Below are positions 11,279 to 43,197 of a DNA stretch of 57,117 nucleotides, piece after piece. The stretch lies in assembly GCA_003445715.1 (NCBI GenBank), contig DMCS01000040.1, positions 967 to 58,083 on the forward strand, in the 5' to 3' direction. The notes beneath the pieces were generated by a model. It had not been told where the DNA came from. It saw nothing but the letters and a program-made list of their open reading frames with translations, and did not search any database. Source of the stretch: Candidatus Mesolinea sp. (GTDB taxonomy: Bacteria; Chloroflexota; Anaerolineae; Anaerolineales; Anaerolineaceae). Both the position numbers and the translations under genes were made by a program. Numbering within the stretch: position 1 is the stretch's first letter; every line of letters starts with the position of its first letter.

Positions 11279-11397
11279 ACTTCACCTTTCTTATGATGCT
11301 CTGGCTTGATTTTGCCATAAGCTTTGAGGGTTGACTTATAATTGACACATCGCTACATAAAATCACAGAAGCTCATTTCACAGAAACTTGCTGTGGA

Positions 11398-12258
11398 ATG
11401 ATTGCTGAAAGTGTAGGAGAAAAAATTTTAAATGAACTATGGAGCATCATGAATAACAACCAAATTACAGAATCTTCGAGCTTAGATTATAGGATTAAAC
11501 TATTTTCGACTCGTGGAAAGGAACCTTGGTTTATTTTGGCAGAATGCATTATCGTTGGAGCAGTTATAGGTGGTCTAATTAGTATATTTTTGAAACCAAT
11601 TTACGAGGCTAAAGCATTGATTACCACTAATATGGAATTGCACACGAATGGCACTATCACTGAAATTATGCTCGATGAACAGATTAGTCAAATCGGAGAA
11701 CTAGTCTTCCATCCGGATGTTGTTTCTAGCTTGATGGAAATTGAAGCAGCACAAGGTAATATGCTCACTTTGGAAGATTTACACAAAAAAACTGATATAG
11801 AGCGTCAACTTATGAATACTCTTATCAAAGTGAAGGATCACGATCCACAAGTAGCGGCACGCATTGCCTCTGAATGGGCTGAAATTCTATTTAACCGCCT
11901 CAATGAAGCATACACACATGCAGTTCGTCTCTCAGAGGCTAAGCTTATGTACGAAATTCTTAGTTCTTGTATAAATGATGCTTCAACAACTTATCAGTCA
12001 TATTGTGAATCCCTCACATATGACCAGATTCAATCTGAGTTGGATCACGTCAATTCTATTATCCTGGAGGAAAGCCCTAAATCTTTGGGGTTGATGTTGG
12101 CGCTAAACGTTAGCCAATATCAACCTGCAGCAATCCCAGCCGAACCACTATATTACCAGCGCGGTACGCTTATACTGTCTGGAGGAGGAATTGGATTAGT
12201 AGTTGGAATTCTCATTAACGAAGCTTTATATAATCAGAAAAAAACTCATGAGTTATAA
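11398..12258 (+). CDS. Polysaccharide co-polymerase (Wzz-like chain-length determinant), putative
   Basis: 286 aa. One TM helix near residue 50 and one near the C-terminus flank a helical soluble domain (PCP topology). Lies next to an O-antigen-ligase-like gene. The start is uncertain (alternative ATG at 11449). Confidence 0.45.
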   Translation: MIAESVGEKILNELWSIMNNNQITESSSLDYRIKLFSTRGKEPWFILAECIIVGAVIGGLISIFLKPIYEAKALITTNMELHTNGTITEIMLDEQISQIGELVFHPDVVSSLMEIEAAQGNMLTLEDLHKKTDIERQLMNTLIKVKDHDPQVAARIASEWAEILFNRLNEAYTHAVRLSEAKLMYEILSSCINDASTTYQSYCESLTYDQIQSELDHVNSIILEESPKSLGLMLALNVSQYQPAAIPAEPLYYQRGTLILSGGGIGLVVGILINEALYNQKKTHEL

Positions 12259-13786
12259 ATATAAAGAATCTTTCCTTAATATCTTTTGGGCTTTGTCATT
12301 AGTATCTTTGCCTGTTACAAGTTTTACACCTTTATCTAGATTATTTGGTGGCACCTCAGTTGCGCCGCTTTCTGCAATATTTTTGTCTATATTAGTAATA
12401 TTATACTTTCTTCCTCATTTTATAAAAACGAAATTAGTTCCTAGACATAGTTTGCCCATTTTGGTTTTTTTTCTCATTACATTGCTCACATTTGCGATGT
12501 CAACTTTTATCCCTTTTGAATCTTTCCGGGATGCTTCTTTTTTCCGAAATGCATTTGAAGGATTTGTTACACTCGCAATGGGCATCGGTTTTTATCTAAT
12601 AACAATATTTGTTATCCGAGATGAAAAATCTTTAAAGAAAACTATTTATTGGATTTATGTTGGAAGTATTATAATTATTTTCACTAGTTTACTACAAGCG
12701 ATTTCTTGGCAATATCTCGGTTACTATCCCCAATTTTTATGGAATATTCAATCCATATTTTCCTCTAGAGGAATGCTTTTTGAAAACCGTGTAACCGGGA
12801 TGGCTTTCGAGCCTTCCTGGCTGGCACACCAACTCAACACGCTCTACATTCCATTATGGTTAGGATTCAGCGTCAAAAATATTTCGATTTCGAAAAAGCG
12901 AATTTTTGGTATTTTGAGCCTCGAAAATATTTTGTTGGTCTTAGGTTTGGGAGTGCTTTTTCTCAGTTTTTCGCGGATTGGCTGGCTGACAACATTGGTG
13001 GTGTTTGCTTTCGCTATTTTCTATATAGCGAATCGGGCGATTAATCATTGGCTGAGCCAACGCAACGAAGCCTCCGGTAAAACAATCAGCCGTACGCGCC
13101 ACTTTATAACCAAATTTGGCATGTGGGTTGGGCTTCTATTGGTCGTTGGCTTGATGATTCTAGCCTCAGGAGTGCTCCTTTCGCGCATCGATCCCAGAAC
13201 GTCAGAACTCTTTAACATAGAGCGACTGCGACGTTTTGGCGTGTTGGGTTGGGCGAGTAAACTCGGCATTGCCGAGCGGTTGATTTACTGGATTACTGGC
13301 TTCCGTGTGTTCTTGGCACACCCGTGGTTTGGGGTTGGGTTAGGTGGCGCTGGGTTCTTTTTCACATCTTTAGTACCTGAGTTCGGCTACGGTTTGCCGG
13401 AGGTGGTCCGTTATCTCTTTTCGCTCAATATTGTACCCAACACAAAAAACTTATGGGTACGGTTGTTAGCCGAAACAGGAATCCTGGGCTTTGCTTTTTA
13501 TGTCTCTTGGGTTTACCTGCAATGGCGCGAAGCCGTTCAATTGGAGAGGACAGGTATGAGCGAACTGGAGCGGGCACTCGGGTTTATTGGCAAATTGTTT
13601 ATCTTGGCGCTAATCATGGAAGGCTTTAGCATGGATACGTTCGGATTACCATATTACTGGATCGCTTTAGGGCTCGTAGTCGCAGCCAGGCGCATCAGCC
13701 AACAAGCCAAAACCCCGCAAAGCGACGAAACCAGAGAAGAATTGACCCGTTCGATAGAGCCTCTGGAAAGCAATCAGCTTGCCTAA
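12248..13786 (+). CDS. O-antigen ligase / Wzy_C-family polytopic membrane protein
   Basis: At least 10 predicted TM helices. Wzy_C-like segment LSFSRIGWLTTLVV and a later HPWFGVGLGG loop. I chose ATG 12248; the ORF track starts at 12203. Confidence 0.7.
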   Translation: MSYKYKESFLNIFWALSLVSLPVTSFTPLSRLFGGTSVAPLSAIFLSILVILYFLPHFIKTKLVPRHSLPILVFFLITLLTFAMSTFIPFESFRDASFFRNAFEGFVTLAMGIGFYLITIFVIRDEKSLKKTIYWIYVGSIIIIFTSLLQAISWQYLGYYPQFLWNIQSIFSSRGMLFENRVTGMAFEPSWLAHQLNTLYIPLWLGFSVKNISISKKRIFGILSLENILLVLGLGVLFLSFSRIGWLTTLVVFAFAIFYIANRAINHWLSQRNEASGKTISRTRHFITKFGMWVGLLLVVGLMILASGVLLSRIDPRTSELFNIERLRRFGVLGWASKLGIAERLIYWITGFRVFLAHPWFGVGLGGAGFFFTSLVPEFGYGLPEVVRYLFSLNIVPNTKNLWVRLLAETGILGFAFYVSWVYLQWREAVQLERTGMSELERALGFIGKLFILALIMEGFSMDTFGLPYYWIALGLVVAARRISQQAKTPQSDETREELTRSIEPLESNQLA

Positions 13787-13800
13787 CAGCCGATGAGCGG

Positions 13801-14832
13801 TTAACGAATGAGAGTGAGCACTGATTGATTGAACTCGGTTAAAGTCTTTTTACCGGTAGCAAACATACAGATACGCAGTTCTTCCAGTATGAGTGTGATC
13901 GTCTTGGCCAATTGGTCATAACCTTCGTTGGCAGCGCGCAGTAGTGGACCCGCGATTCCTCCCAGGGTTGCACCCAAAGCCAAGCTCTTTGCTAAATCGA
14001 TGCCATTTTGCAGCCCACCAGAAGCAAAAACACATGCATTCGGAATTTCTTGTTTAATCTCGGCTAGGCATTGGGCTGTAGGGATGCCCCAGTCCTGAAA
14101 GTGAGCTACCATCTGCGCACGTTGTGGGTCTTTTTGCCGATACATCTCCACCTGGGACCAAGATGTACCGCCTGCACCAGCCACGTCTATGGCTGCTACG
14201 CCGGCTTCCAATAATTGCTTTGCTGCAGCCGCACCAATTCCCCAACCGACTTCTTTAGCAATGACCGGCACGGGCAGCTTCCTACAGATTTCCTCAATGC
14301 GCTTCAGTAAACCGTGAAATTGGGTGTCCCCTTCGGGTTGCAAGGCTTCTTGGAGCGGGTTAAGATGCAAAATGAGCGCATTGGCTGCGAGCATGTTCAC
14401 CGCTCTCTGGCATTCGCTAATACCATAGCCCATGTTGAGTTGTACCGCGCCCAAGTTCGCAAATAGGAGCGCGTCAGGTGCTTCTTGGCGGGTGATGCGG
14501 AAAGTATCTTCAAGAGATGGGTCTTCGAGCGCGGCGCGCTGCGAACCTACGCCTATTGCTAGTCCAAATTCCTGTGCAGCGCGGGCTAAAAGTTGGTTGA
14601 AATGGGCTGCTTTTTGTGTGCCACCAGTCATCGAGGAGATCAAGAGCGGACTGCGCAAGCGCTCGCCAAAAACCGTCAGGCTGGTATCGACCTCAGCCAA
14701 ATCAATTTCTGGCAGAGCTTGATGGCGAAAACGATACGCCTCGAAGCCGTTTGTTAGAGAGGATTTCACCCCCTTTTCCAAATTAATCCGCAAGTGGTCG
14801 TCTTTTCGTGAAGCGGTATGTGCATCCATCAT
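13801..14832 (-). CDS. fni: Type 2 isopentenyl-diphosphate delta-isomerase (FMN-dependent)
   Basis: 343 aa. SSMTGG, VGSQR, KEVGWG and AGAGGTSW motifs characteristic of IDI-2. Confidence 0.9.
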   Translation of the reverse strand: MMDAHTASRKDDHLRINLEKGVKSSLTNGFEAYRFRHQALPEIDLAEVDTSLTVFGERLRSPLLISSMTGGTQKAAHFNQLLARAAQEFGLAIGVGSQRAALEDPSLEDTFRITRQEAPDALLFANLGAVQLNMGYGISECQRAVNMLAANALILHLNPLQEALQPEGDTQFHGLLKRIEEICRKLPVPVIAKEVGWGIGAAAAKQLLEAGVAAIDVAGAGGTSWSQVEMYRQKDPQRAQMVAHFQDWGIPTAQCLAEIKQEIPNACVFASGGLQNGIDLAKSLALGATLGGIAGPLLRAANEGYDQLAKTITLILEELRICMFATGKKTLTEFNQSVLTLIR

Positions 14833-14916
14833 AATCTTCCTGTGTTATAGTAATGGTATTATAATTTGGCAATCAAAAATGCTAAAATATCCAGAATAAT
14901 GACAGTGAGGTGAAGG

Positions 14917-15156
14917 ATGGAAAATACATTTGAAAAAGTAAAAGAAGTCATCGTTGATGTACTCAAGATCGATGGTGATGATATTACGATGGACACGCGT
15001 TTCATTGAAGATCTCAAAGCTGATTCGATGGACCAGTTTTTTCTTATTGACGGTTTTTGCGAGAAGTTCGATATTACCATTTCCGACGAAACTGCGCGCA
15101 GTATACGCACAGTTGGTGATGCGGTCAAAGTGGTTGACGAACTTACCAAAGAGTAA
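14917..15156 (+). CDS. acpP: Acyl carrier protein
   Basis: 79 aa. The phosphopantetheine attachment motif LKADSMD is in the expected position. SD GAGGTGA lies upstream. Confidence 0.85.
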   Translation: MENTFEKVKEVIVDVLKIDGDDITMDTRFIEDLKADSMDQFFLIDGFCEKFDITISDETARSIRTVGDAVKVVDELTKE

Positions 15157-15203
15157 AACAGATTAATTCCTAGAGTAGAGGAGCACTGGGCTCCTCTTTG
15201 TGT

Positions 15204-16073
15204 TTAAGAGGTTGTAATTAGCGAGACGATTTCCTCTGGGAAGGAGACAACTTTCACGCCAGCCTGCCTAAAAGCGGCAATCTTGGATTGTGCCGTACCA
15301 GTGTTGCCCTCGATAATCGCACCAGCGTGCCCCATGCGGCGGTTTTCGGGTGCGGATTTTCCCGCAATGTAAGCGCAAACCGGTTTCGTCATCTCATTAA
15401 CGACAAACTCGGCAGCTTTTTCTTCTTCATTTCCGCCAATTTCACCCACAATAATGACTTGATCCGTGTGCGGGTCATCCTCGAAGAGCTCTAAACAATC
15501 CACAAAGCTCGTGCCTATAACCGGGTCTCCGCCAATGCCAATGCAAGTACTTACACCAATCCCAACCCGCTTGAGCGCTAAGGCTACTTCGTAAGTCAAC
15601 GTCCCTGAGCGGGAAACAATCCCGACTTTACCAGGTATTGCAATGTCTCCAGGGATAATGCCAGCTTTAGCTTGGCCGGGAGTGATAATTCCCGGAGAAT
15701 TGGGACCGACGAGGTAACACTCCTTCCCTGCTAAAACGCGGCGCACTTTGAGCATATCCATAATTGGAATCCCCTCTGTAATGCACACAATCAACTGTAT
15801 GCCTGCGTCGATCGACTCCAGAATTGCATCAAATGCATGGTAGGCTGGCACAAAAACCACGCTTGTATCTGCACCGGTAGACTTTTTTGCTTCCTCAACG
15901 GTATCGAATATGGGGACTTTGCCGTCCAATACCCATTCGCCGCCATGACCTGGGGATGTGCCAGCAACGATATTATGCCCGTAGTCCTGCATGTGCTGTG
16001 CATGATAACGGCCTTCGCGCCCGGTTATACCTTGAACCATGATTTTAGATTTATCTGTGAGTAAGATGCTCAT
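15204..16073 (-). CDS. sucD: Succinyl-CoA synthetase alpha subunit
   Basis: 289 aa. VQGITGREG, SRSGTLTYE and the catalytic-His region MGHAGAII. Confidence 0.95.
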   Translation of the reverse strand: MSILLTDKSKIMVQGITGREGRYHAQHMQDYGHNIVAGTSPGHGGEWVLDGKVPIFDTVEEAKKSTGADTSVVFVPAYHAFDAILESIDAGIQLIVCITEGIPIMDMLKVRRVLAGKECYLVGPNSPGIITPGQAKAGIIPGDIAIPGKVGIVSRSGTLTYEVALALKRVGIGVSTCIGIGGDPVIGTSFVDCLELFEDDPHTDQVIIVGEIGGNEEEKAAEFVVNEMTKPVCAYIAGKSAPENRRMGHAGAIIEGNTGTAQSKIAAFRQAGVKVVSFPEEIVSLITTS

Positions 16074-38435: not shown

Positions 38436-39563
38436 ATGATCACTATTGTTCCAGTCAATAGCAAAAAACTACAAAAGCAATTTGTCGAATTCCAATACCA
38501 GCTCTACGAGAACTGCCCACAATTTACCCCACCGATAAAAAGTGATATTTACGCAATGATGAATCCTAAAAAGCATCCCTATTATGAGCATTCGGATGCC
38601 GATTTTTTTCTAGCACTGGATGGAGATAAAGTTGTTGGCCGTATTGCAGCCTTGCAAAACAAACCCTTTAACGCTTACCATCACACCAAGGATGCCGAAT
38701 TTTATCTGTTCGACTGCATTGATAGCCAAGAAGTTGCAAATGCACTCTTTGACCGGGTTGCGGAATGGGCGAAAGCCCGCGGAATGAACCGATTAGTGGG
38801 TCCTAAAGGCTTTGGCCCGCTGGATGGCTATGGCATTCAAATCGAGGGCTTTGAACACCACCAGATGATGAACATGATGAATTACAACTATCCTTACTAC
38901 CGCGATTTGGTGGAAAATTATGGCTTTGTCAAAGAGGTTGACTTTGTATCCAGTTATGTCAATCCACAGAATCTCGAGGTACCAGAAAAGGTGGCTAAGG
39001 CGGTAAGCATAGCCAAAAAACGCAACACACTGACAATCAAGAATTTTAAGAATAAAGCCGAAATCCGCAAATGGGCACCCAAGATTCGGGAAGCCTATAA
39101 CGGTGCTTTCGTCAATAACTGGGAATACTATCCTCTCACTGAGCGGGAGATTAACTTTGTGGTGGATAATGCCATCATTTTGGTAATTCCTGAACTTCTG
39201 CAACTGGTGCTCAAAGGCGATAAGGTGGTTGGATTTGTGCTGCCCTTTCCGGATGTCTCCGAAGCATTTAAGAAGAATAAGGGTAAATTAGGGCCGATTG
39301 AAATCTTGCGCATCCTGCGGGAAATCAATAAGACTAATTGGATCGACTTTAATGGCATCGGCATTTTGCCAGAAGCGCAAGGTTTTGGCGGTAACGCACT
39401 CATATATGACATTCTCATTCGATCGGTTAGAGATAATCCACGTTATCAGCATGCCGAGCTGACCCAGGTGGCAGAGACAGCGGAGCAGATGCGTAAAGAT
39501 TTGCTTAACCTCGGCTGCACGTTTTACAAGAACCACCGGGTGTATAAAAAAGCGCTCGCGTAA
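38436..39563 (+). CDS. GNAT-like N-acetyltransferase family protein (putative)
   Basis: 375 aa. Resembles a family of long GNAT-fold hypothetical proteins (C-terminal GILPE.QG.G.N). Assigned from memory only. Confidence 0.55.
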   Translation: MITIVPVNSKKLQKQFVEFQYQLYENCPQFTPPIKSDIYAMMNPKKHPYYEHSDADFFLALDGDKVVGRIAALQNKPFNAYHHTKDAEFYLFDCIDSQEVANALFDRVAEWAKARGMNRLVGPKGFGPLDGYGIQIEGFEHHQMMNMMNYNYPYYRDLVENYGFVKEVDFVSSYVNPQNLEVPEKVAKAVSIAKKRNTLTIKNFKNKAEIRKWAPKIREAYNGAFVNNWEYYPLTEREINFVVDNAIILVIPELLQLVLKGDKVVGFVLPFPDVSEAFKKNKGKLGPIEILRILREINKTNWIDFNGIGILPEAQGFGGNALIYDILIRSVRDNPRYQHAELTQVAETAEQMRKDLLNLGCTFYKNHRVYKKALA

Positions 39564-39679: not shown

Positions 39680-40429
39680 ATGGCAAAATATAAACAGCGC
39701 AAGCGTAATCTCTATGAAAACACTTCCGATACTTATGCAATCTCACGATCTAAGATAGACCTGTTTATCAACTGCCCGCGTTGTTTTTATCTTGATAGGA
39801 AGCTTGGCTTGGCTCAGCCTTCCATGCCAGGCTGGCCTCTCAATTCTGCAGTTGATTACCTTCTGAAGCAGGAATTTGACTATTATCGAAAACTGCAACA
39901 ACCTCACCCAATTATGCTTCAATATGGCATTGATGCCGTCCCTTTTTCTCATCCCGATTTACCATTTTGGCGAGATGACGTCTACCATTATGTGGGGGCT
40001 TCCGTTGTGGATGAACAAACTGGTTTCCAGGTTCAGGGAATTATTGATGATGTATGGATCACACCTCAAGGGGAACTCCACATCGTAGACTACAAGTCCA
40101 CTTCTACCTCCAGTGAAATTAGTTTAGAAGATGAATATAAACGGCCTTACAAGCGTCAAATGGAAGTCTACCAATGGATTTTCAGGAAAATGGGCTTTAA
40201 GGTCTCCTCGGTGGGGTATTTTGTTTTTGCTAATGCTTTGAAGGACCGCGATTTTTTTGATAACAAACTTGAGTTTGAACTAACGATTCTCTCTCATCAC
40301 GGGGACGATTCTTGGGTTAGTCCCACTCTGATGGAAATGAAAACAGTTCTGGATAGCGATACTTTACCAGAGGCAAATCCTGATTGCGAATATTGTGAAT
40401 ACCGCCGGTTAATCAAAGAAGTGGAATAG
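39680..40429 (+). CDS. PD-(D/E)XK nuclease, Cas4/RecB-like with Cys cluster
   Basis: 249 aa. N-terminal CPRCFY, GIIDDV, the nuclease core IVDYKST, QMEVY, and C-terminal CEYCEY (2+2 Cys, potentially an Fe-S or Zn site). SD AAGGAGG lies upstream. Confidence 0.75.
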   Translation: MAKYKQRKRNLYENTSDTYAISRSKIDLFINCPRCFYLDRKLGLAQPSMPGWPLNSAVDYLLKQEFDYYRKLQQPHPIMLQYGIDAVPFSHPDLPFWRDDVYHYVGASVVDEQTGFQVQGIIDDVWITPQGELHIVDYKSTSTSSEISLEDEYKRPYKRQMEVYQWIFRKMGFKVSSVGYFVFANALKDRDFFDNKLEFELTILSHHGDDSWVSPTLMEMKTVLDSDTLPEANPDCEYCEYRRLIKEVE

Positions 40430-40647
40430 TCAAAAAGGGGAGCACATTGTTCCATGTCCGTTTAGGCACCAAAAAATCCCACAATCTGCCGGCGCCATGT
40501 TAATGCTCATGCCGATGATGGAGATCGGGCGTGTTTTTGTATTCCTGTGTTTCGTGAGTATGTATGTGGTTGTGGAAATGACTGTGTAGGATCTGCCTCT
40601 TAATGAACAATGCGCGTTAAAAACCTACCAATTATCTGAAATATTAG

Positions 40648-40671
40648 AGCGGGTGATGGGATTCGAACCCA
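40648..40671. repeat. Direct repeat copy 1 (orphan copy of tRNA-Gly 3' end; distal att site of island)
   Basis: AGCGGGTGATGGGATTCGAACCCA is identical to 42997-43020. The flanking bases differ on both sides. Confidence 0.85.
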
Positions 40672-40739
40672 TGGTACGGTATAATAGATAAATGATATAG
40701 GCTAATCTTAGTAAATTATCACAATAAATTTGCAATCAT

Positions 40740-42242
40740 ATGAAAACAATAATCGATCTTTCTAATGAAGAAGCAAAAGTTTATTTTCTTAAGGGAAGTA
40801 GCTATTTTAATAATGATTTGCCCAACTATGTTAGCTTTGAACCAATTCTAACTAATGTTTTGAAAATATTAGACGGAAATGATATCAAAATATTCCAAAA
40901 AAGAAATCCAAGTGATTTTTCAGATGTAAATTATAGTTTAATCACTAACAAAGATGGTAAATTTGCTTGGCGGCCGATTGAATTAATTCATCCAGTAATT
41001 TATGTTTCTTTAGTAAATTTGATATGTGAACCTACTAACTGGGCTATTATTTTGCAACGTTTATCAGAATTTGAGAGTGGGCCAATTGACTGCTGCAGCT
41101 TGCCGACGGTATCTACTGATCAACAAAAAGATGTTGAGGAGACAATAAAAAATTGGTGGCAAGAAATTGAGCAAAAATCTTTAAAACTTTCTTTAGAATA
41201 TAGCCACATCCTTCAAACTGATGTAGTAGATTGTTATGGTTCTCTTTATACACACAGTATTCCTTGGGCAATTCATGGACGTGATGAATCAAAGAAAAAA
41301 AGAGCGGATAAATCTCTATTAGGAAATAAAATTGATAGTCTAATCCAAGCGGGTAGATATGGACAAACCAATGGAATTTCTCAAGGTTCGACTTTAATGG
41401 ACTTTATAGCGGAACTTGTTCTTGGATTTGTTGACTCACAAATCAGTCAAGAATTAAAAGATAAAAAAATAGAGGATTTTCATATTCTTAGATATCGTGA
41501 TGATTATAGAATTTTTGGGAACAGCGATGAGACGGTTGAAGCTATTTTACAAGTGGTTAGTGAAAAATTAAGAATGGTGGGCATGAAATTAGGAACATCC
41601 AAGACACAATTAAGCAGAAATATTGTAGGTGGATCTATAAAACCAGATAAATTAGCTGCTATAGCGTTGTCTGATTTAGGGGAAGAAAATGCACAGACAT
41701 TACAAAAGCAACTTCTTCGGCTTCATTCTTTTGGCCTACAATATCCTAACAGTGGTGCGCTTCGACGTTTACTTAGTATTTATTATAAAAATTTATCTGA
41801 TAACAAGGGAAAGCCAAAAGACCTTGAGGTATTATTAGCAATTGCAACTGATATTGGGTTTGTTTCCCCATCTACCTTTCCAGGTATAGCTGGTATATTA
41901 AGCTATTTGCTCTCACTAGCTCCACCTGGACAAAAAAATAACTTGTGGGATAAGGTACTCAAGAAAATGAAGCATATTCCTTATAATGGATTTCTTGAAA
42001 TATGGCTTCAACGAATAGTCGTACCAAAAGAAATAAACATCTCGTTTGAAAGTGCTGAGGCAATATGTAGAATTGTTAATGGTCAATCCATAAATTTGTG
42101 GGAAAACGGATGGATTTCTAATAATGATCTCAAGAAGGCATTAGATACCTCAAATATTGTCGTAAAGATTGCATCTGAAGTAGAGGAAGTTGTCCAATAT
42201 GACGAAATCGCATTATTCAACCAGAAGGCAATAGAATATTAG
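40740..42242 (+). CDS. Reverse transcriptase, UG/Abi/DRT-like (defence-associated type)
   Basis: 500 aa. Motif A LQTDVVDCYGSLYTHSI (Asp161). Motif B GISQGSTLMDFIAELVL. Motif C ILRYRDDYRIF (Asp254-Asp255). KLGTSKT beta-hairpin motif. About 150 aa N-terminal extension and about 200 aa helical C-terminal region. Confidence 0.85.
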   Translation: MKTIIDLSNEEAKVYFLKGSSYFNNDLPNYVSFEPILTNVLKILDGNDIKIFQKRNPSDFSDVNYSLITNKDGKFAWRPIELIHPVIYVSLVNLICEPTNWAIILQRLSEFESGPIDCCSLPTVSTDQQKDVEETIKNWWQEIEQKSLKLSLEYSHILQTDVVDCYGSLYTHSIPWAIHGRDESKKKRADKSLLGNKIDSLIQAGRYGQTNGISQGSTLMDFIAELVLGFVDSQISQELKDKKIEDFHILRYRDDYRIFGNSDETVEAILQVVSEKLRMVGMKLGTSKTQLSRNIVGGSIKPDKLAAIALSDLGEENAQTLQKQLLRLHSFGLQYPNSGALRRLLSIYYKNLSDNKGKPKDLEVLLAIATDIGFVSPSTFPGIAGILSYLLSLAPPGQKNNLWDKVLKKMKHIPYNGFLEIWLQRIVVPKEINISFESAEAICRIVNGQSINLWENGWISNNDLKKALDTSNIVVKIASEVEEVVQYDEIALFNQKAIEY

Positions 42243-42348
42243 ATTAATTAATACTAGAAACCAAAATAACATTAACTTTTATCTAAACAGATACATATAA
42301 TAACTCACTGTGGCAAGTGATTCGATTCGAATTACAATCTATAATTAA

Positions 42349-42954
42349 TTGGATATGGATAATCAATCAAAATCAAAATGGGAACATTTTCTTGACCCAG
42401 AAGTTTTAAGGCCAAACTTAATTTTTGCATCAATTTATATTGCTGCTTTTGAAATCCTGCAAAATTCTATTGTTGAGCGGATTAAAGATTTTTATACAAT
42501 AGAATTTAATGAAAATGGTTCGATAATCATGCCTGAATATCAAGAAGACGTTTTATCCAAAGATAAAAGTCATACTTATGCTTCGCTGAAATGGCTAAAA
42601 GAAAATAGTGCAATTGATGATGAAGATTTTGAAAAGTTCGAGAAAATCAAAGATTATCGTAATCTTTTGGCTCATGAGATTTCAAGAATGTTGATGGATG
42701 GTCTACCGCCTGATATTGGAGATAGATTTAAGGACATGATTTCATTATTAGACAAGATAGAAAAATGGTGGATTATCAATTTTGAGATTCCGATAAATCC
42801 GGACTTCGATGGTAAACACGACGAAATTAATGAAAGCGAAATATTTCCCGGACCAATTTTGATCTTGAAAATAATGATTGATGTTGCTCTCGGATCTGAA
42901 GAAGAGGCAAATTTCTATATAAATGAATATAAGAAAAGCTTAAGAAGCTCATAA
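42349..42954 (+). CDS. HEPN-like (Rx4H) putative RNase effector partner of the RT
   Basis: 201 aa, soluble and predicted helical by eye. KIKDYRNLLAHEIS contains R104-N-L-L-A-H109, the HEPN Rx4-6H signature with Asn after Arg. The start could be TTG 42349 or ATG 42355. Confidence 0.5.
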   Translation: MDMDNQSKSKWEHFLDPEVLRPNLIFASIYIAAFEILQNSIVERIKDFYTIEFNENGSIIMPEYQEDVLSKDKSHTYASLKWLKENSAIDDEDFEKFEKIKDYRNLLAHEISRMLMDGLPPDIGDRFKDMISLLDKIEKWWIINFEIPINPDFDGKHDEINESEIFPGPILILKIMIDVALGSEEEANFYINEYKKSLRSS

Positions 42955-42996
42955 TCAATTTTGGGGGAAAACATAATGCTGAAAGGGCGGAAAAAA

Positions 42997-43020
42997 AGCG
43001 GGTGATGGGATTCGAACCCA
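42997..43020. repeat. Direct repeat copy 2 (within the intact tRNA-Gly 3' end; proximal att site)
   Basis: Identical 24-mer to 40648-40671. Covers tRNA positions from the 3' half of the T-arm through the discriminator base. Confidence 0.85.
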
Positions 43021-43068
43021 CGAATGGTAGCTTGGGAAGCTACTGCCTTACCACTTGGCGACACCCGC
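42997..43068 (-). tRNA. tRNA-Gly (anticodon CCC)
   Basis: Folded by hand. 7-bp acceptor stem GCGGGTG/CACCCGC. D-arm with GG loop. 5-bp anticodon stem GTAGC/GCTAC with loop TT-CCC-AA. 5-nt variable loop. T-arm GTGGG-TTCGAAT-CCCAT. U discriminator. CCA is not encoded. Confidence 0.9.
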
Positions 43069-43197
43069 TTTGCACATATATTTTATCGCAAATTTTCAAA
43101 ACGCAATCGCTTTGTCTCCAAAAAACACCAAATTTCTTTTTATCCTTATAATTAGGGTTGATCAGGCGCGATCGAAACTTAAAAAGGAGAGCAAACT

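Follow-up and report, generated by a model that had tools for sequence, protein, structure and literature searches.

Cis-mobilizable elements (CIMEs), defined for the integrative and conjugative elements and integrative and mobilizable elements of streptococci, keep their attachment (att) sites and are devoid of genes for integration and transfer (PMC5704250, PMC6323972). An islet of similar design is found in a 57,117-nt stretch of DNA from Candidatus Mesolinea sp. (GenBank assembly GCA_003445715.1, contig DMCS01000040.1, positions 967 to 58,083, forward strand), which was analysed as a whole and is called the window below. Like CIMEs, the islet lies at the 3' end of its target gene, here a tRNA-Gly(CCC), is bounded by attL/attR-type repeats, has no integration or transfer genes and presumably relies on an integrase-bearing element. 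Unlike them, it is very small (2.3 kb), belongs to an uncultured member of the Anaerolineaceae (Chloroflexota) and contains two defence-type genes, and its att sites are putative.

The larger of the two genes encodes a reverse transcriptase (RT) related to Abi-P2 of the Escherichia coli P2-like prophages P2-EC30 and P2-EC58 (PDB 7R08, PMC9508834). The two proteins share full-length homology, the YRDD motif, the priming tyrosine and the region of the helical C-terminal domain, while the RT of the window, known from its sequence, is only 34-35% identical to the P2-EC30 and P2-EC58 RTs, is located outside a prophage and belongs to a very large environmental clade. A second precedent is AbiA of Lactococcus, another Abi-type RT (PMC11077055). 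Here the likeness lies in an Abi-class RT standing beside a module with a HEPN-type R-x4-H motif; however, the genes of the window are separate and their association is facultative, the 500-aa RT is matched only weakly by the AbiA models (E about 7e-10), and the second protein has no more than a putative HEPN fold. The AbiA RT itself reportedly carries a HEPN domain.

Two further kinds of element invite comparison. Homologues of the second protein, which has 201 amino acids, are found as single genes between attC-like sites, in the manner of integron cassettes, as would suit a compact function mobilized by a recombinase from elsewhere; in contrast, the gene of the window has no attC-like site and is part of an islet bounded by tRNA-derived att repeats. 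The Dehalococcoides islands at the tmRNA gene ssrA (PMC3146451) are likewise horizontally acquired elements of Chloroflexota at a small stable-RNA gene, but they use another target and are much larger. Each component of the islet has a precedent: tRNA 3' ends as integration sites, CIMEs, Abi-P2 as mobile cargo, and defence genes at hotspots. Its very small size is somewhat unusual, as are the minimal design recurring at two tRNAs in Anaerolineae and the uncharacterized RNxxxH family of the second protein; for the rest, this is a real but fairly ordinary mini-island without a recombinase.

We read the islet as a CIME-like element that has no recombinase of its own, is held between attL/attR-type repeats of the tRNA-Gly(CCC) end and depends on an integrase acting in trans, and assign to this reading a probability of about 0.6. 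The features of the islet are:

40648 to 40671, no strand: distal att-like repeat, in which the terminal 24 nt of tRNA-Gly(CCC) stand as an orphan, identical to 42997-43020
40672 to 42996, no strand: islet body, 2325 bp, AT-rich, about 91% coding, with no recombinase gene, absent at the corresponding site of the related contig L006
40740 to 42242, plus strand: Abi-P2-family reverse-transcriptase-like polymerase, 500 aa (PADLOC, Pfam, PDB 7R08)
42312 to 42335, plus strand: possible third, degenerate att 24-mer in the spacer between the RT gene and the second gene (15 of 24 positions match)
42349 to 42954, plus strand: 201-aa protein (199 aa with the ATG at 42355 as start), member of an all-alpha family that lacks annotation and shares an invariant RNxxxH motif
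42996 to 43069, minus strand: intact tRNA-Gly(CCC), the integration target (ARAGORN), the sole tRNA called in the window
42997 to 43020, no strand: proximal att-like repeat, inside the intact tRNA

The window contains two, and only two, exact copies of the 24-mer AGCGGGTGATGGGATTCGAACCCA (40648-40671 and 42997-43020); a search allowing up to three mismatches found no third copy there, and 100 shuffles produced none by chance. An earlier examination of the window (the sequence-only reading) had described the second copy as the 3' part of tRNA-Gly(CCC) and the first as an orphan, and motif count, ARAGORN and Rfam (tRNA model at 42997-43068, 65.2 bits) agree with it. Written on the tRNA strand, the repeat is TGGGTTCGAATCCCATCACCCGCT, i.e. 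the terminal 24 nt of the tRNA, from the second base of the T-arm through the 3' acceptor strand to the discriminator. The last two of these parts had been recognized correctly in that reading, whereas the T-arm is covered to a slightly greater extent than the 3' half it had allowed. To the right of the 40648 copy the sequence (TGGTACGG...) no longer follows the tRNA, and none was predicted at this copy.

Base composition was computed directly and as a sliding profile. The G+C content is 0.323 in the islet (40672-42996), 0.462 in the 10 kb to its left and 0.465 in the 10 kb to its right, so that the compositional break is real and the islet is foreign relative to the host flanks; the value of one third that had been estimated by eye for the islet was accurate, whereas that of about one half for the flanks was a slight overstatement. 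Only two substantial open reading frames (ORFs) are present in the interval, both on the plus strand. They cover about 91% of it, with a gap of 106 nt between them and spacers of 68 and 42 nt between genes and repeats, and leave no space for a recombinase, the absence of which from the element had been asserted from the start. Nor was a recombinase found by Pfam among ten mid-sized ORFs of the window, the remaining ORFs of which appeared housekeeping-like on inspection. No pseudogene DNA could be traced in the islet, and promoter and terminator scans gave results no better than those obtained with shuffled sequences. In the Rfam scan, the tRNA was the sole structured RNA within the islet or close to it, leaving a non-coding RNA partner of the kind known from defence-associated reverse transcriptases unsupported.

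The genomes closest to the window, as found by a scan with the nearby MurA protein, are those of Ca. Mesolinea-related Anaerolineaceae (93-94% MurA identity). An empty site is seen in L006 (Ca. Mesolinea sp. R103_9), a different species: behind the stop codon of a PD-(D/E)XK gene, some 200 nt that are homologous to positions 40480-40647 of the window lead without interruption into an intact tRNA-Gly. The insertion at the 3' end of tRNA-Gly that had been proposed from the repeat is thus corroborated by a congener. In addition, no relative has a second copy of the 24-mer unless the cassette is also present.

The cassette recurs at the tRNA-Gly site, with the same junctions, in four other metagenomic lineages (L091, L203, L204 and L205). 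In L091, from activated sludge, the GNAT gene is followed after about 230 nt by the orphan repeat in a decayed form, AGCGGaTGATGGaAcTtGAACCCA, then by the cassette (91.4% nucleotide identity) and by the tRNA with its perfect 24-mer; the PD-(D/E)XK gene is missing. L203, L204 and L205 contain a second, diverged allele, with about 75-78% nucleotide identity to the window (amino-acid identity 71-72% for the RT and 74% for the second gene). The orphan repeat of this allele (AGaGGGTGATGGGATTCGAAttaA in L203 and L204) has four mismatches, at positions other than the four of L091. In the sequence-only reading, a search for the cassette beside tRNA-Gly genes of other genomes had been proposed, and these lineages are its positive result, their orphan copies being decayed. 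As judged from these comparisons, the cassette is an accessory insertion that is absent in a congener and exists as two diverged alleles across lineages, and two lineages have one of the alleles in common despite a much greater divergence of their flanking core gene.

The last point can be expressed as synonymous divergence (dS):

Window and L091, RT: 0.12
Window and L091, second gene: 0.16
Window and L091, adjacent GNAT gene: 1.24
L091 and L007 (cassette-free), GNAT gene: 0.054
Window and L204, RT: 0.88
Window and L204, PD-(D/E)XK gene: 1.24
Window and L006, L007 or L010, PD-(D/E)XK gene: 0.30-0.33

At synonymous sites, the RT of L091 is therefore about ten times closer to the copy of the window than is the neighbouring core gene (0.12 vs 1.24). 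From this pattern, the cassette has long been associated with the site as two diverged alleles (RT dS about 0.9) and does not result from one recent event; it is polymorphic among close relatives, and it has crossed between lineages at least once, much later than the lineages diverged.

Integrases predicted to use this att exist. The exact 24-mer was found in 21 viral contigs, most of which simply encode tRNA-Gly genes; only two of them, L211 and L214, pair it with a tyrosine integrase. In L214, the integrase is 80 nt from a tRNA-Gly(CCC) that matches the tRNA of the window at 51 of 52 bases, and in L211 the integrase is followed by a 3' fragment of tRNA-Gly(CCC). Moreover, the minimal architecture is repeated at a different target. 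An integrase-less islet of 1.8 kb is present at tRNA-Asn(GTT) in Anaerolineae bacterium DUED01000030 (L176:7752-9630; also L177 and L178), where the tRNA is followed by a spacer rich in A+T, an Abi-P2-like RT that stands alone (65% identity) and, matching at 35 of 37 nt, a copy of the 3' half of the tRNA that starts in the anticodon stem.

According to the preferred reading, a tyrosine integrase supplied by another element would have recombined an incoming tRNA-Gly-like att with the T-loop/acceptor end of the chromosomal tRNA. The recombination would have rebuilt the tRNA and left the orphan 24-mer beside the original downstream flank. Having no integrase, the cassette would now move only through an integrase in trans or by homologous recombination through the tRNA and the flank. 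As to its cargo, the RT would synthesize DNA in a protein-primed, template-independent manner and abort phage infection unaided, the 201-aa gene being a separately mobile module. We favour a compact cassette that was delivered, and possibly re-delivered, by an integrase in trans, because candidate integrases for the att exist, the architecture recurs, and the islet is too tidy for slow decay.

Several observations weigh against this reading. The pattern of an exact empty site (left flank, 24-mer and tRNA body; the attB junction would read ...CTGAAATATTAG + 24-mer + CGAATGG...) had no match in the metagenome and genome collections; the exact-junction search thus gave no conspecific empty site, and the empty site is seen solely through a diverged congener. 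The left junction (end of the 24-mer and start of the cassette) had no match in the viral contigs, and neither an excision product nor an attP junction (the expected circle junction being ...GGGCGGAAAAAA + 24-mer + TGGTACGG...) was present in the collections searched. No integrase can be assigned to this organism from 57 kb of its genome. The biochemical roles attributed to both islet proteins are deduced from homology. Furthermore, the divergence of the two alleles (RT dS about 0.9) is similar to that of the flank in the same lineages (PD-(D/E)XK 1.24), and therefore vertical inheritance and loss could explain much of the distribution of the cassette. Finally, the region is mosaic: the adjacent PD-(D/E)XK and GNAT genes (window 39680-40429 and 38436-39563) have discordant histories, indicating that homologous exchange is active here, and the similarity between the window and L091 could therefore reflect homologous and not site-specific recombination.

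The last objection can be extended to a full alternative, in which the cassette spread among Mesolinea-like species by homologous or homology-facilitated recombination, through the tRNA/DAGK side and the orphan repeat, the repeat itself being a historical scar. The mosaic genealogies (dS 0.30-0.33 for PD-(D/E)XK, 1.24 for GNAT, 0.12 for the cassette) fit such a process. So do the differences between left flanks, with PD-(D/E)XK in the window and L204 and not in L091 and with some 20 nt beside the orphan repeat similar, and the decay of the orphan repeats in L091 and in L203/L204. However, it explains neither the origin of the tRNA-end duplication nor the parallel islet at tRNA-Asn, and in the window the repeat has stayed perfect. 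Between congeners, spread by homologous recombination is credible; as the explanation of the islet, we consider it somewhat unlikely.

Alternatively, the islet may be what is left in place of a larger, integrase-bearing prophage or island at tRNA-Gly, after internal deletions that spared two selected defence genes and the att ends. Integrase-bearing elements appear to use the same att (L211, L214), a related RT adjoins an integrase in L200, Abi-P2 genes are classically cargo of prophages (PMC9508834), and deletions at the locus are evident, with only the tail of an EamA-type gene left next to the islet and the second gene gone in L203. On the other hand, an islet that is about 91% coding, with spacers of 68 and 42 nt and no pseudogene DNA, does not look like a product of erosion. 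Dead DNA persists in this lineage: the second gene of L091, though inactivated, is still full length at dS 0.16, and a decaying integrase should therefore have left remnants. Both diverged alleles have the same compact boundaries, and the RT-only islet at tRNA-Asn, in another genus, is equally compact. The sequence-only reading had offered a decayed remnant and a cassette mobilized in trans as the two possible origins. Both stand, while the compactness of the islet favours the latter, and decay in place seems to us rather unlikely.

The PADLOC AbiP2 model (489 positions) aligns its positions 4-487 with residues 1-497 of the 500-aa protein (E 3.9e-192), the score of Pfam RVT_1 exceeds the cut-off, and the Abi-P2 structure 7R08 aligns with residues 1-462 (E 5.5e-80). 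The palm motif RYRDDYRIF is identical in the two proteins; within it, R251, R253, D254, D255 and Y256 are invariant, and Y252 nearly so, in 29 homologues. Tyr61 of the crystallized Abi-P2 construct, which primes DNA synthesis (PMC9508834), lies in the motif LPAY and aligns with Y30 (LPNY), a residue likewise invariant in the 29 homologues. The protein is thus a full-length Abi-P2-family polymerase, the region of the C-terminal helical domain included, and should, by homology, perform protein-primed, template-independent DNA synthesis and act as a stand-alone abortive infection system. Its clade is large, with 3856 proteins at E<1e-30 among 8000 candidates scored, and extends over several phyla.

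The genomic settings of its relatives are diverse. In L176 and L180 the RT homologue stands alone among core genes. A 68%-identical RT of L200 (120-3290) is directly downstream of a tyrosine integrase (PF00589 and PF13495) and a 118-aa gene; no att repeats are found in this 9-kb contig, and nested palindromes (TTTCTTATATAAGAAA) occupy positions 1618-1696, just upstream of the RT. In L184 (6001-8249; likewise in L185-L192), the RT (63% identity) has, 36 nt behind it, a gene for an RNase_T-family 3'-5' exonuclease, which is a candidate alternative partner for the RT clade. The setting of the L184 RT is rich in toxin-antitoxin genes (HicA, ParD-like, DUF3800, HNH); a tmRNA suspected beside it was not confirmed by ARAGORN. 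A protein scan of the viral contigs with the RT returned one relative, at 41% identity, and the same scan with the 201-aa protein returned none. The relative, on an 84.6-kb viral contig (L090:9549-11497), begins 378 nt after a tRNA-Asp(GTC), and there is no tRNA-end repeat within the 21-kb locus.

The 201-aa protein belongs to a family with at least 184 homologues, all named hypothetical and none with a Pfam domain. R104, N105 and H109 are invariant in 35 sequences (R104-N-L-L-A-H109), as fits an R-x4-6-H motif. The Pfam models HepT-like, RiboL-PSP and Cthe2314 match at E 0.006-0.02, below their cut-offs, and a PDB profile search returned nothing. A confident AlphaFold2 model (predicted local distance difference test score 88.8) is all-alpha; Foldseek found no structure with E<0.001, the best matches being Csm6 (E 0.37) and HepT/MNT-HEPN (E 2-5). 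That the protein is HEPN-like is a reasonable guess, and its gene probably serves in defence or acts like a toxin, with an RNxxxH site of HEPN type; the family may plausibly represent a new stand-alone defence or toxin gene.

In its genomic settings the gene behaves as a highly mobile, independent single-gene module. One homologue (L159, 582-1160) is part of an array of attC-like repeats at 468, 1147, 1757, 2264 and 2779 (468-2862), spaced by 500-700 nt, and another (L162:9462-10630; also L163) is a single cassette between 59-nt sites, which we take to resemble classical attC (59-be) sites. In the window, no attC-like repeat flanks the gene (42243-42996). A further, solo homologue (L087:9591-10641) is inserted in a butyrate-type operon, where it separates the 3HCDH gene from that for enoyl-CoA hydratase; the final 25 nt of the upstream hbd-type 3HCDH gene flank the insert in three diverged copies (100, 80 and 76% identity), as if two small cassettes had been inserted in tandem at the 3' end of a gene.

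A comparable history can be imagined for the islet itself. The degenerate repeat at 42312-42335 hints at tandem accretion of two single-gene cassettes, and its site is kept in L091 at 14 of 24 positions; nevertheless, about 10% of shuffled islands give such a match somewhere, and the observation is post hoc and not statistically secure. It is a doubtful proposal that the series of orphan repeat, RT, degenerate repeat, second gene and tRNA represents two accreted cassettes. Similarly speculative is the more general idea that single defence genes of Chloroflexota (here the Abi-P2-type RT and, on its own, the RNxxxH protein) travel in a distinct class of minimal recombinase-less cassettes, bounded by the 3' ends of tRNAs or other genes. 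Such cassettes would exploit in trans the tRNA-targeting tyrosine integrases that phages or islands encode, and would accumulate by tandem accretion. If true, stacked cassettes would be a tRNA-att analogue of integron cassettes and not the debris of larger islands.

It is conceivable, on the contrary, that the RT and the HEPN-like protein form an obligate two-gene system, a split version of the AbiA RT-HEPN fusion, of which the islet would be the minimal unit. The two genes share a strand and are separated by 106 nt, the RNxxxH motif does not vary, and AbiA offers a precedent for an Abi-type RT with a HEPN domain. An independent adjacency in the opposite order also exists (L172:10001-12229; also L173-L175), with a 207-aa RNxxxH protein followed after 108 nt by a 498-aa RT (59% and 64% identity). 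However, in a census of about 85 loci encoding a homologue of the second gene, an Abi-P2-like RT was nearby only in the lineages with the tRNA-Gly cassette (the window, and L091 in that census) and in L172-L175. The RT homologues for their part occur alone (L176, L180) or with RNase_T (L184), and the second gene occurs as a free-standing integron cassette (L159, L162). Within the cassette series, the second gene has been lost twice while the RT was kept: in L091 it is still full length and contains several in-frame stops, and in L203 it is deleted save for its last 50 nt or so, the RT being intact in both. By these comparisons the 201-aa gene does not appear to be a required partner of the RT, and an obligate system is largely refuted and, in our view, improbable. 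Of the RT/HEPN-like pair originally described, the RT therefore stands, as a member of the Abi-P2 family; the HEPN-like nature of its neighbour is weak and unproven, and the notion of a two-gene system, with genes that are rarely adjacent and a second gene lost in L091 and L203, is not demonstrable.

Last, the possibility that the pair of 24-mers arose by chance or belongs to a dispersed repeat, with no relation to the insertion, for which it can be said only that the 24-mer is a common tRNA-Gly 3' end found also in phage-encoded tRNA genes, is refuted and has practically no probability left, considering that no copies are expected by chance and no extra copies exist in the window, that the second copy forms the end of a tRNA and the first adjoins the native downstream flank, that an empty site exists, and that cassette-free relatives are devoid of a second copy.

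The islet provides a clean, bounded case of a single-gene antiviral system kept and exchanged at a tRNA hotspot without a recombinase of its own, in an uncultured lineage of Anaerolineaceae found in sludge-type metagenomes. Together with its relatives (an empty site, two alleles, decayed orphan repeats and two losses of the second gene) it constitutes a natural experiment on the gain, loss and decay of defence islets, and it draws attention to an RNxxxH family that, with its 184 or more homologues, travels as integron cassettes and as small repeat-bounded inserts. If mobilized in trans, it would be a simple vehicle for the exchange of defence genes, of a kind overlooked by island finders keyed to integrases.

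The neighbourhood of the islet is conserved on a large scale and variable at the tRNA. The gene order PckA-MurA-thioredoxin-DAGK-tRNA-Gly(CCC)-...-GNAT-EF-P-FtsH is kept in dozens of Anaerolineaceae genomes, and in distant Anaerolineaceae the GNAT gene directly follows the tRNA. Within the Mesolinea group, what follows the tRNA varies, and a PD-(D/E)XK (Cas4-like) gene is found there. L007 and L010 have there an extra His-rich EamA-type permease, and L009 has a P-type ATPase and a permease; full EamA-type genes lie between the tRNA and PD-(D/E)XK at L007:12649-13755 and, with the P-type ATPase, at L009:12645-16050. No second copy of the tRNA end accompanies these metal-transport genes in L007, L009 or L010. 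In the window, two features record this history:

40430 to 40647, no strand: native tRNA-downstream sequence displaced by the insertion, aligning with the spacer between tRNA and PD-(D/E)XK of L006
40503 to 40574, minus strand: 3'-terminal remnant of a His-rich EamA-type gene, found by tblastn with the tail of the L007 EamA protein

The same remnant of the EamA gene is present in L006. Because the content of this space is so variable within the Mesolinea group, the 3' side of tRNA-Gly is a long-standing, layered hotspot of gain and loss. The large "islands" that follow tRNA-Gly in L011-L018 turned out to consist of metabolic genes (phosphotransferase system, transketolase, phosphoenolpyruvate-utilizing), with no integrase and no repeat, and are uninformative on the use of the att.

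Some variation was also noticed elsewhere. In six Anaerolineaceae genomes (L021, L023, L024, L026, L028 and L029, at about 11300-15640), some 4.3 kb are inserted between the MurA and thioredoxin genes; this insertion is absent from the window and from the other relatives. A second stretch of low G+C content in the window (11398-13786, 0.38-0.42) encodes Wzz-like and O-antigen-ligase-like membrane proteins and is probably a variable cell-surface locus. Finally, independent metagenome assemblies identical to the window (contigs L002-L005) break at the same places, 40436-40534 and 43020-43075. On the left, L002 and L003 begin at 40436 and L005 stops at 40534, with an overlap of 99 nt; on the right, L004 stops at 43022, at the repeat, and L003 at 43075. 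These shared breaks suggest branches of the assembly graph, and hence strain heterogeneity around the islet.

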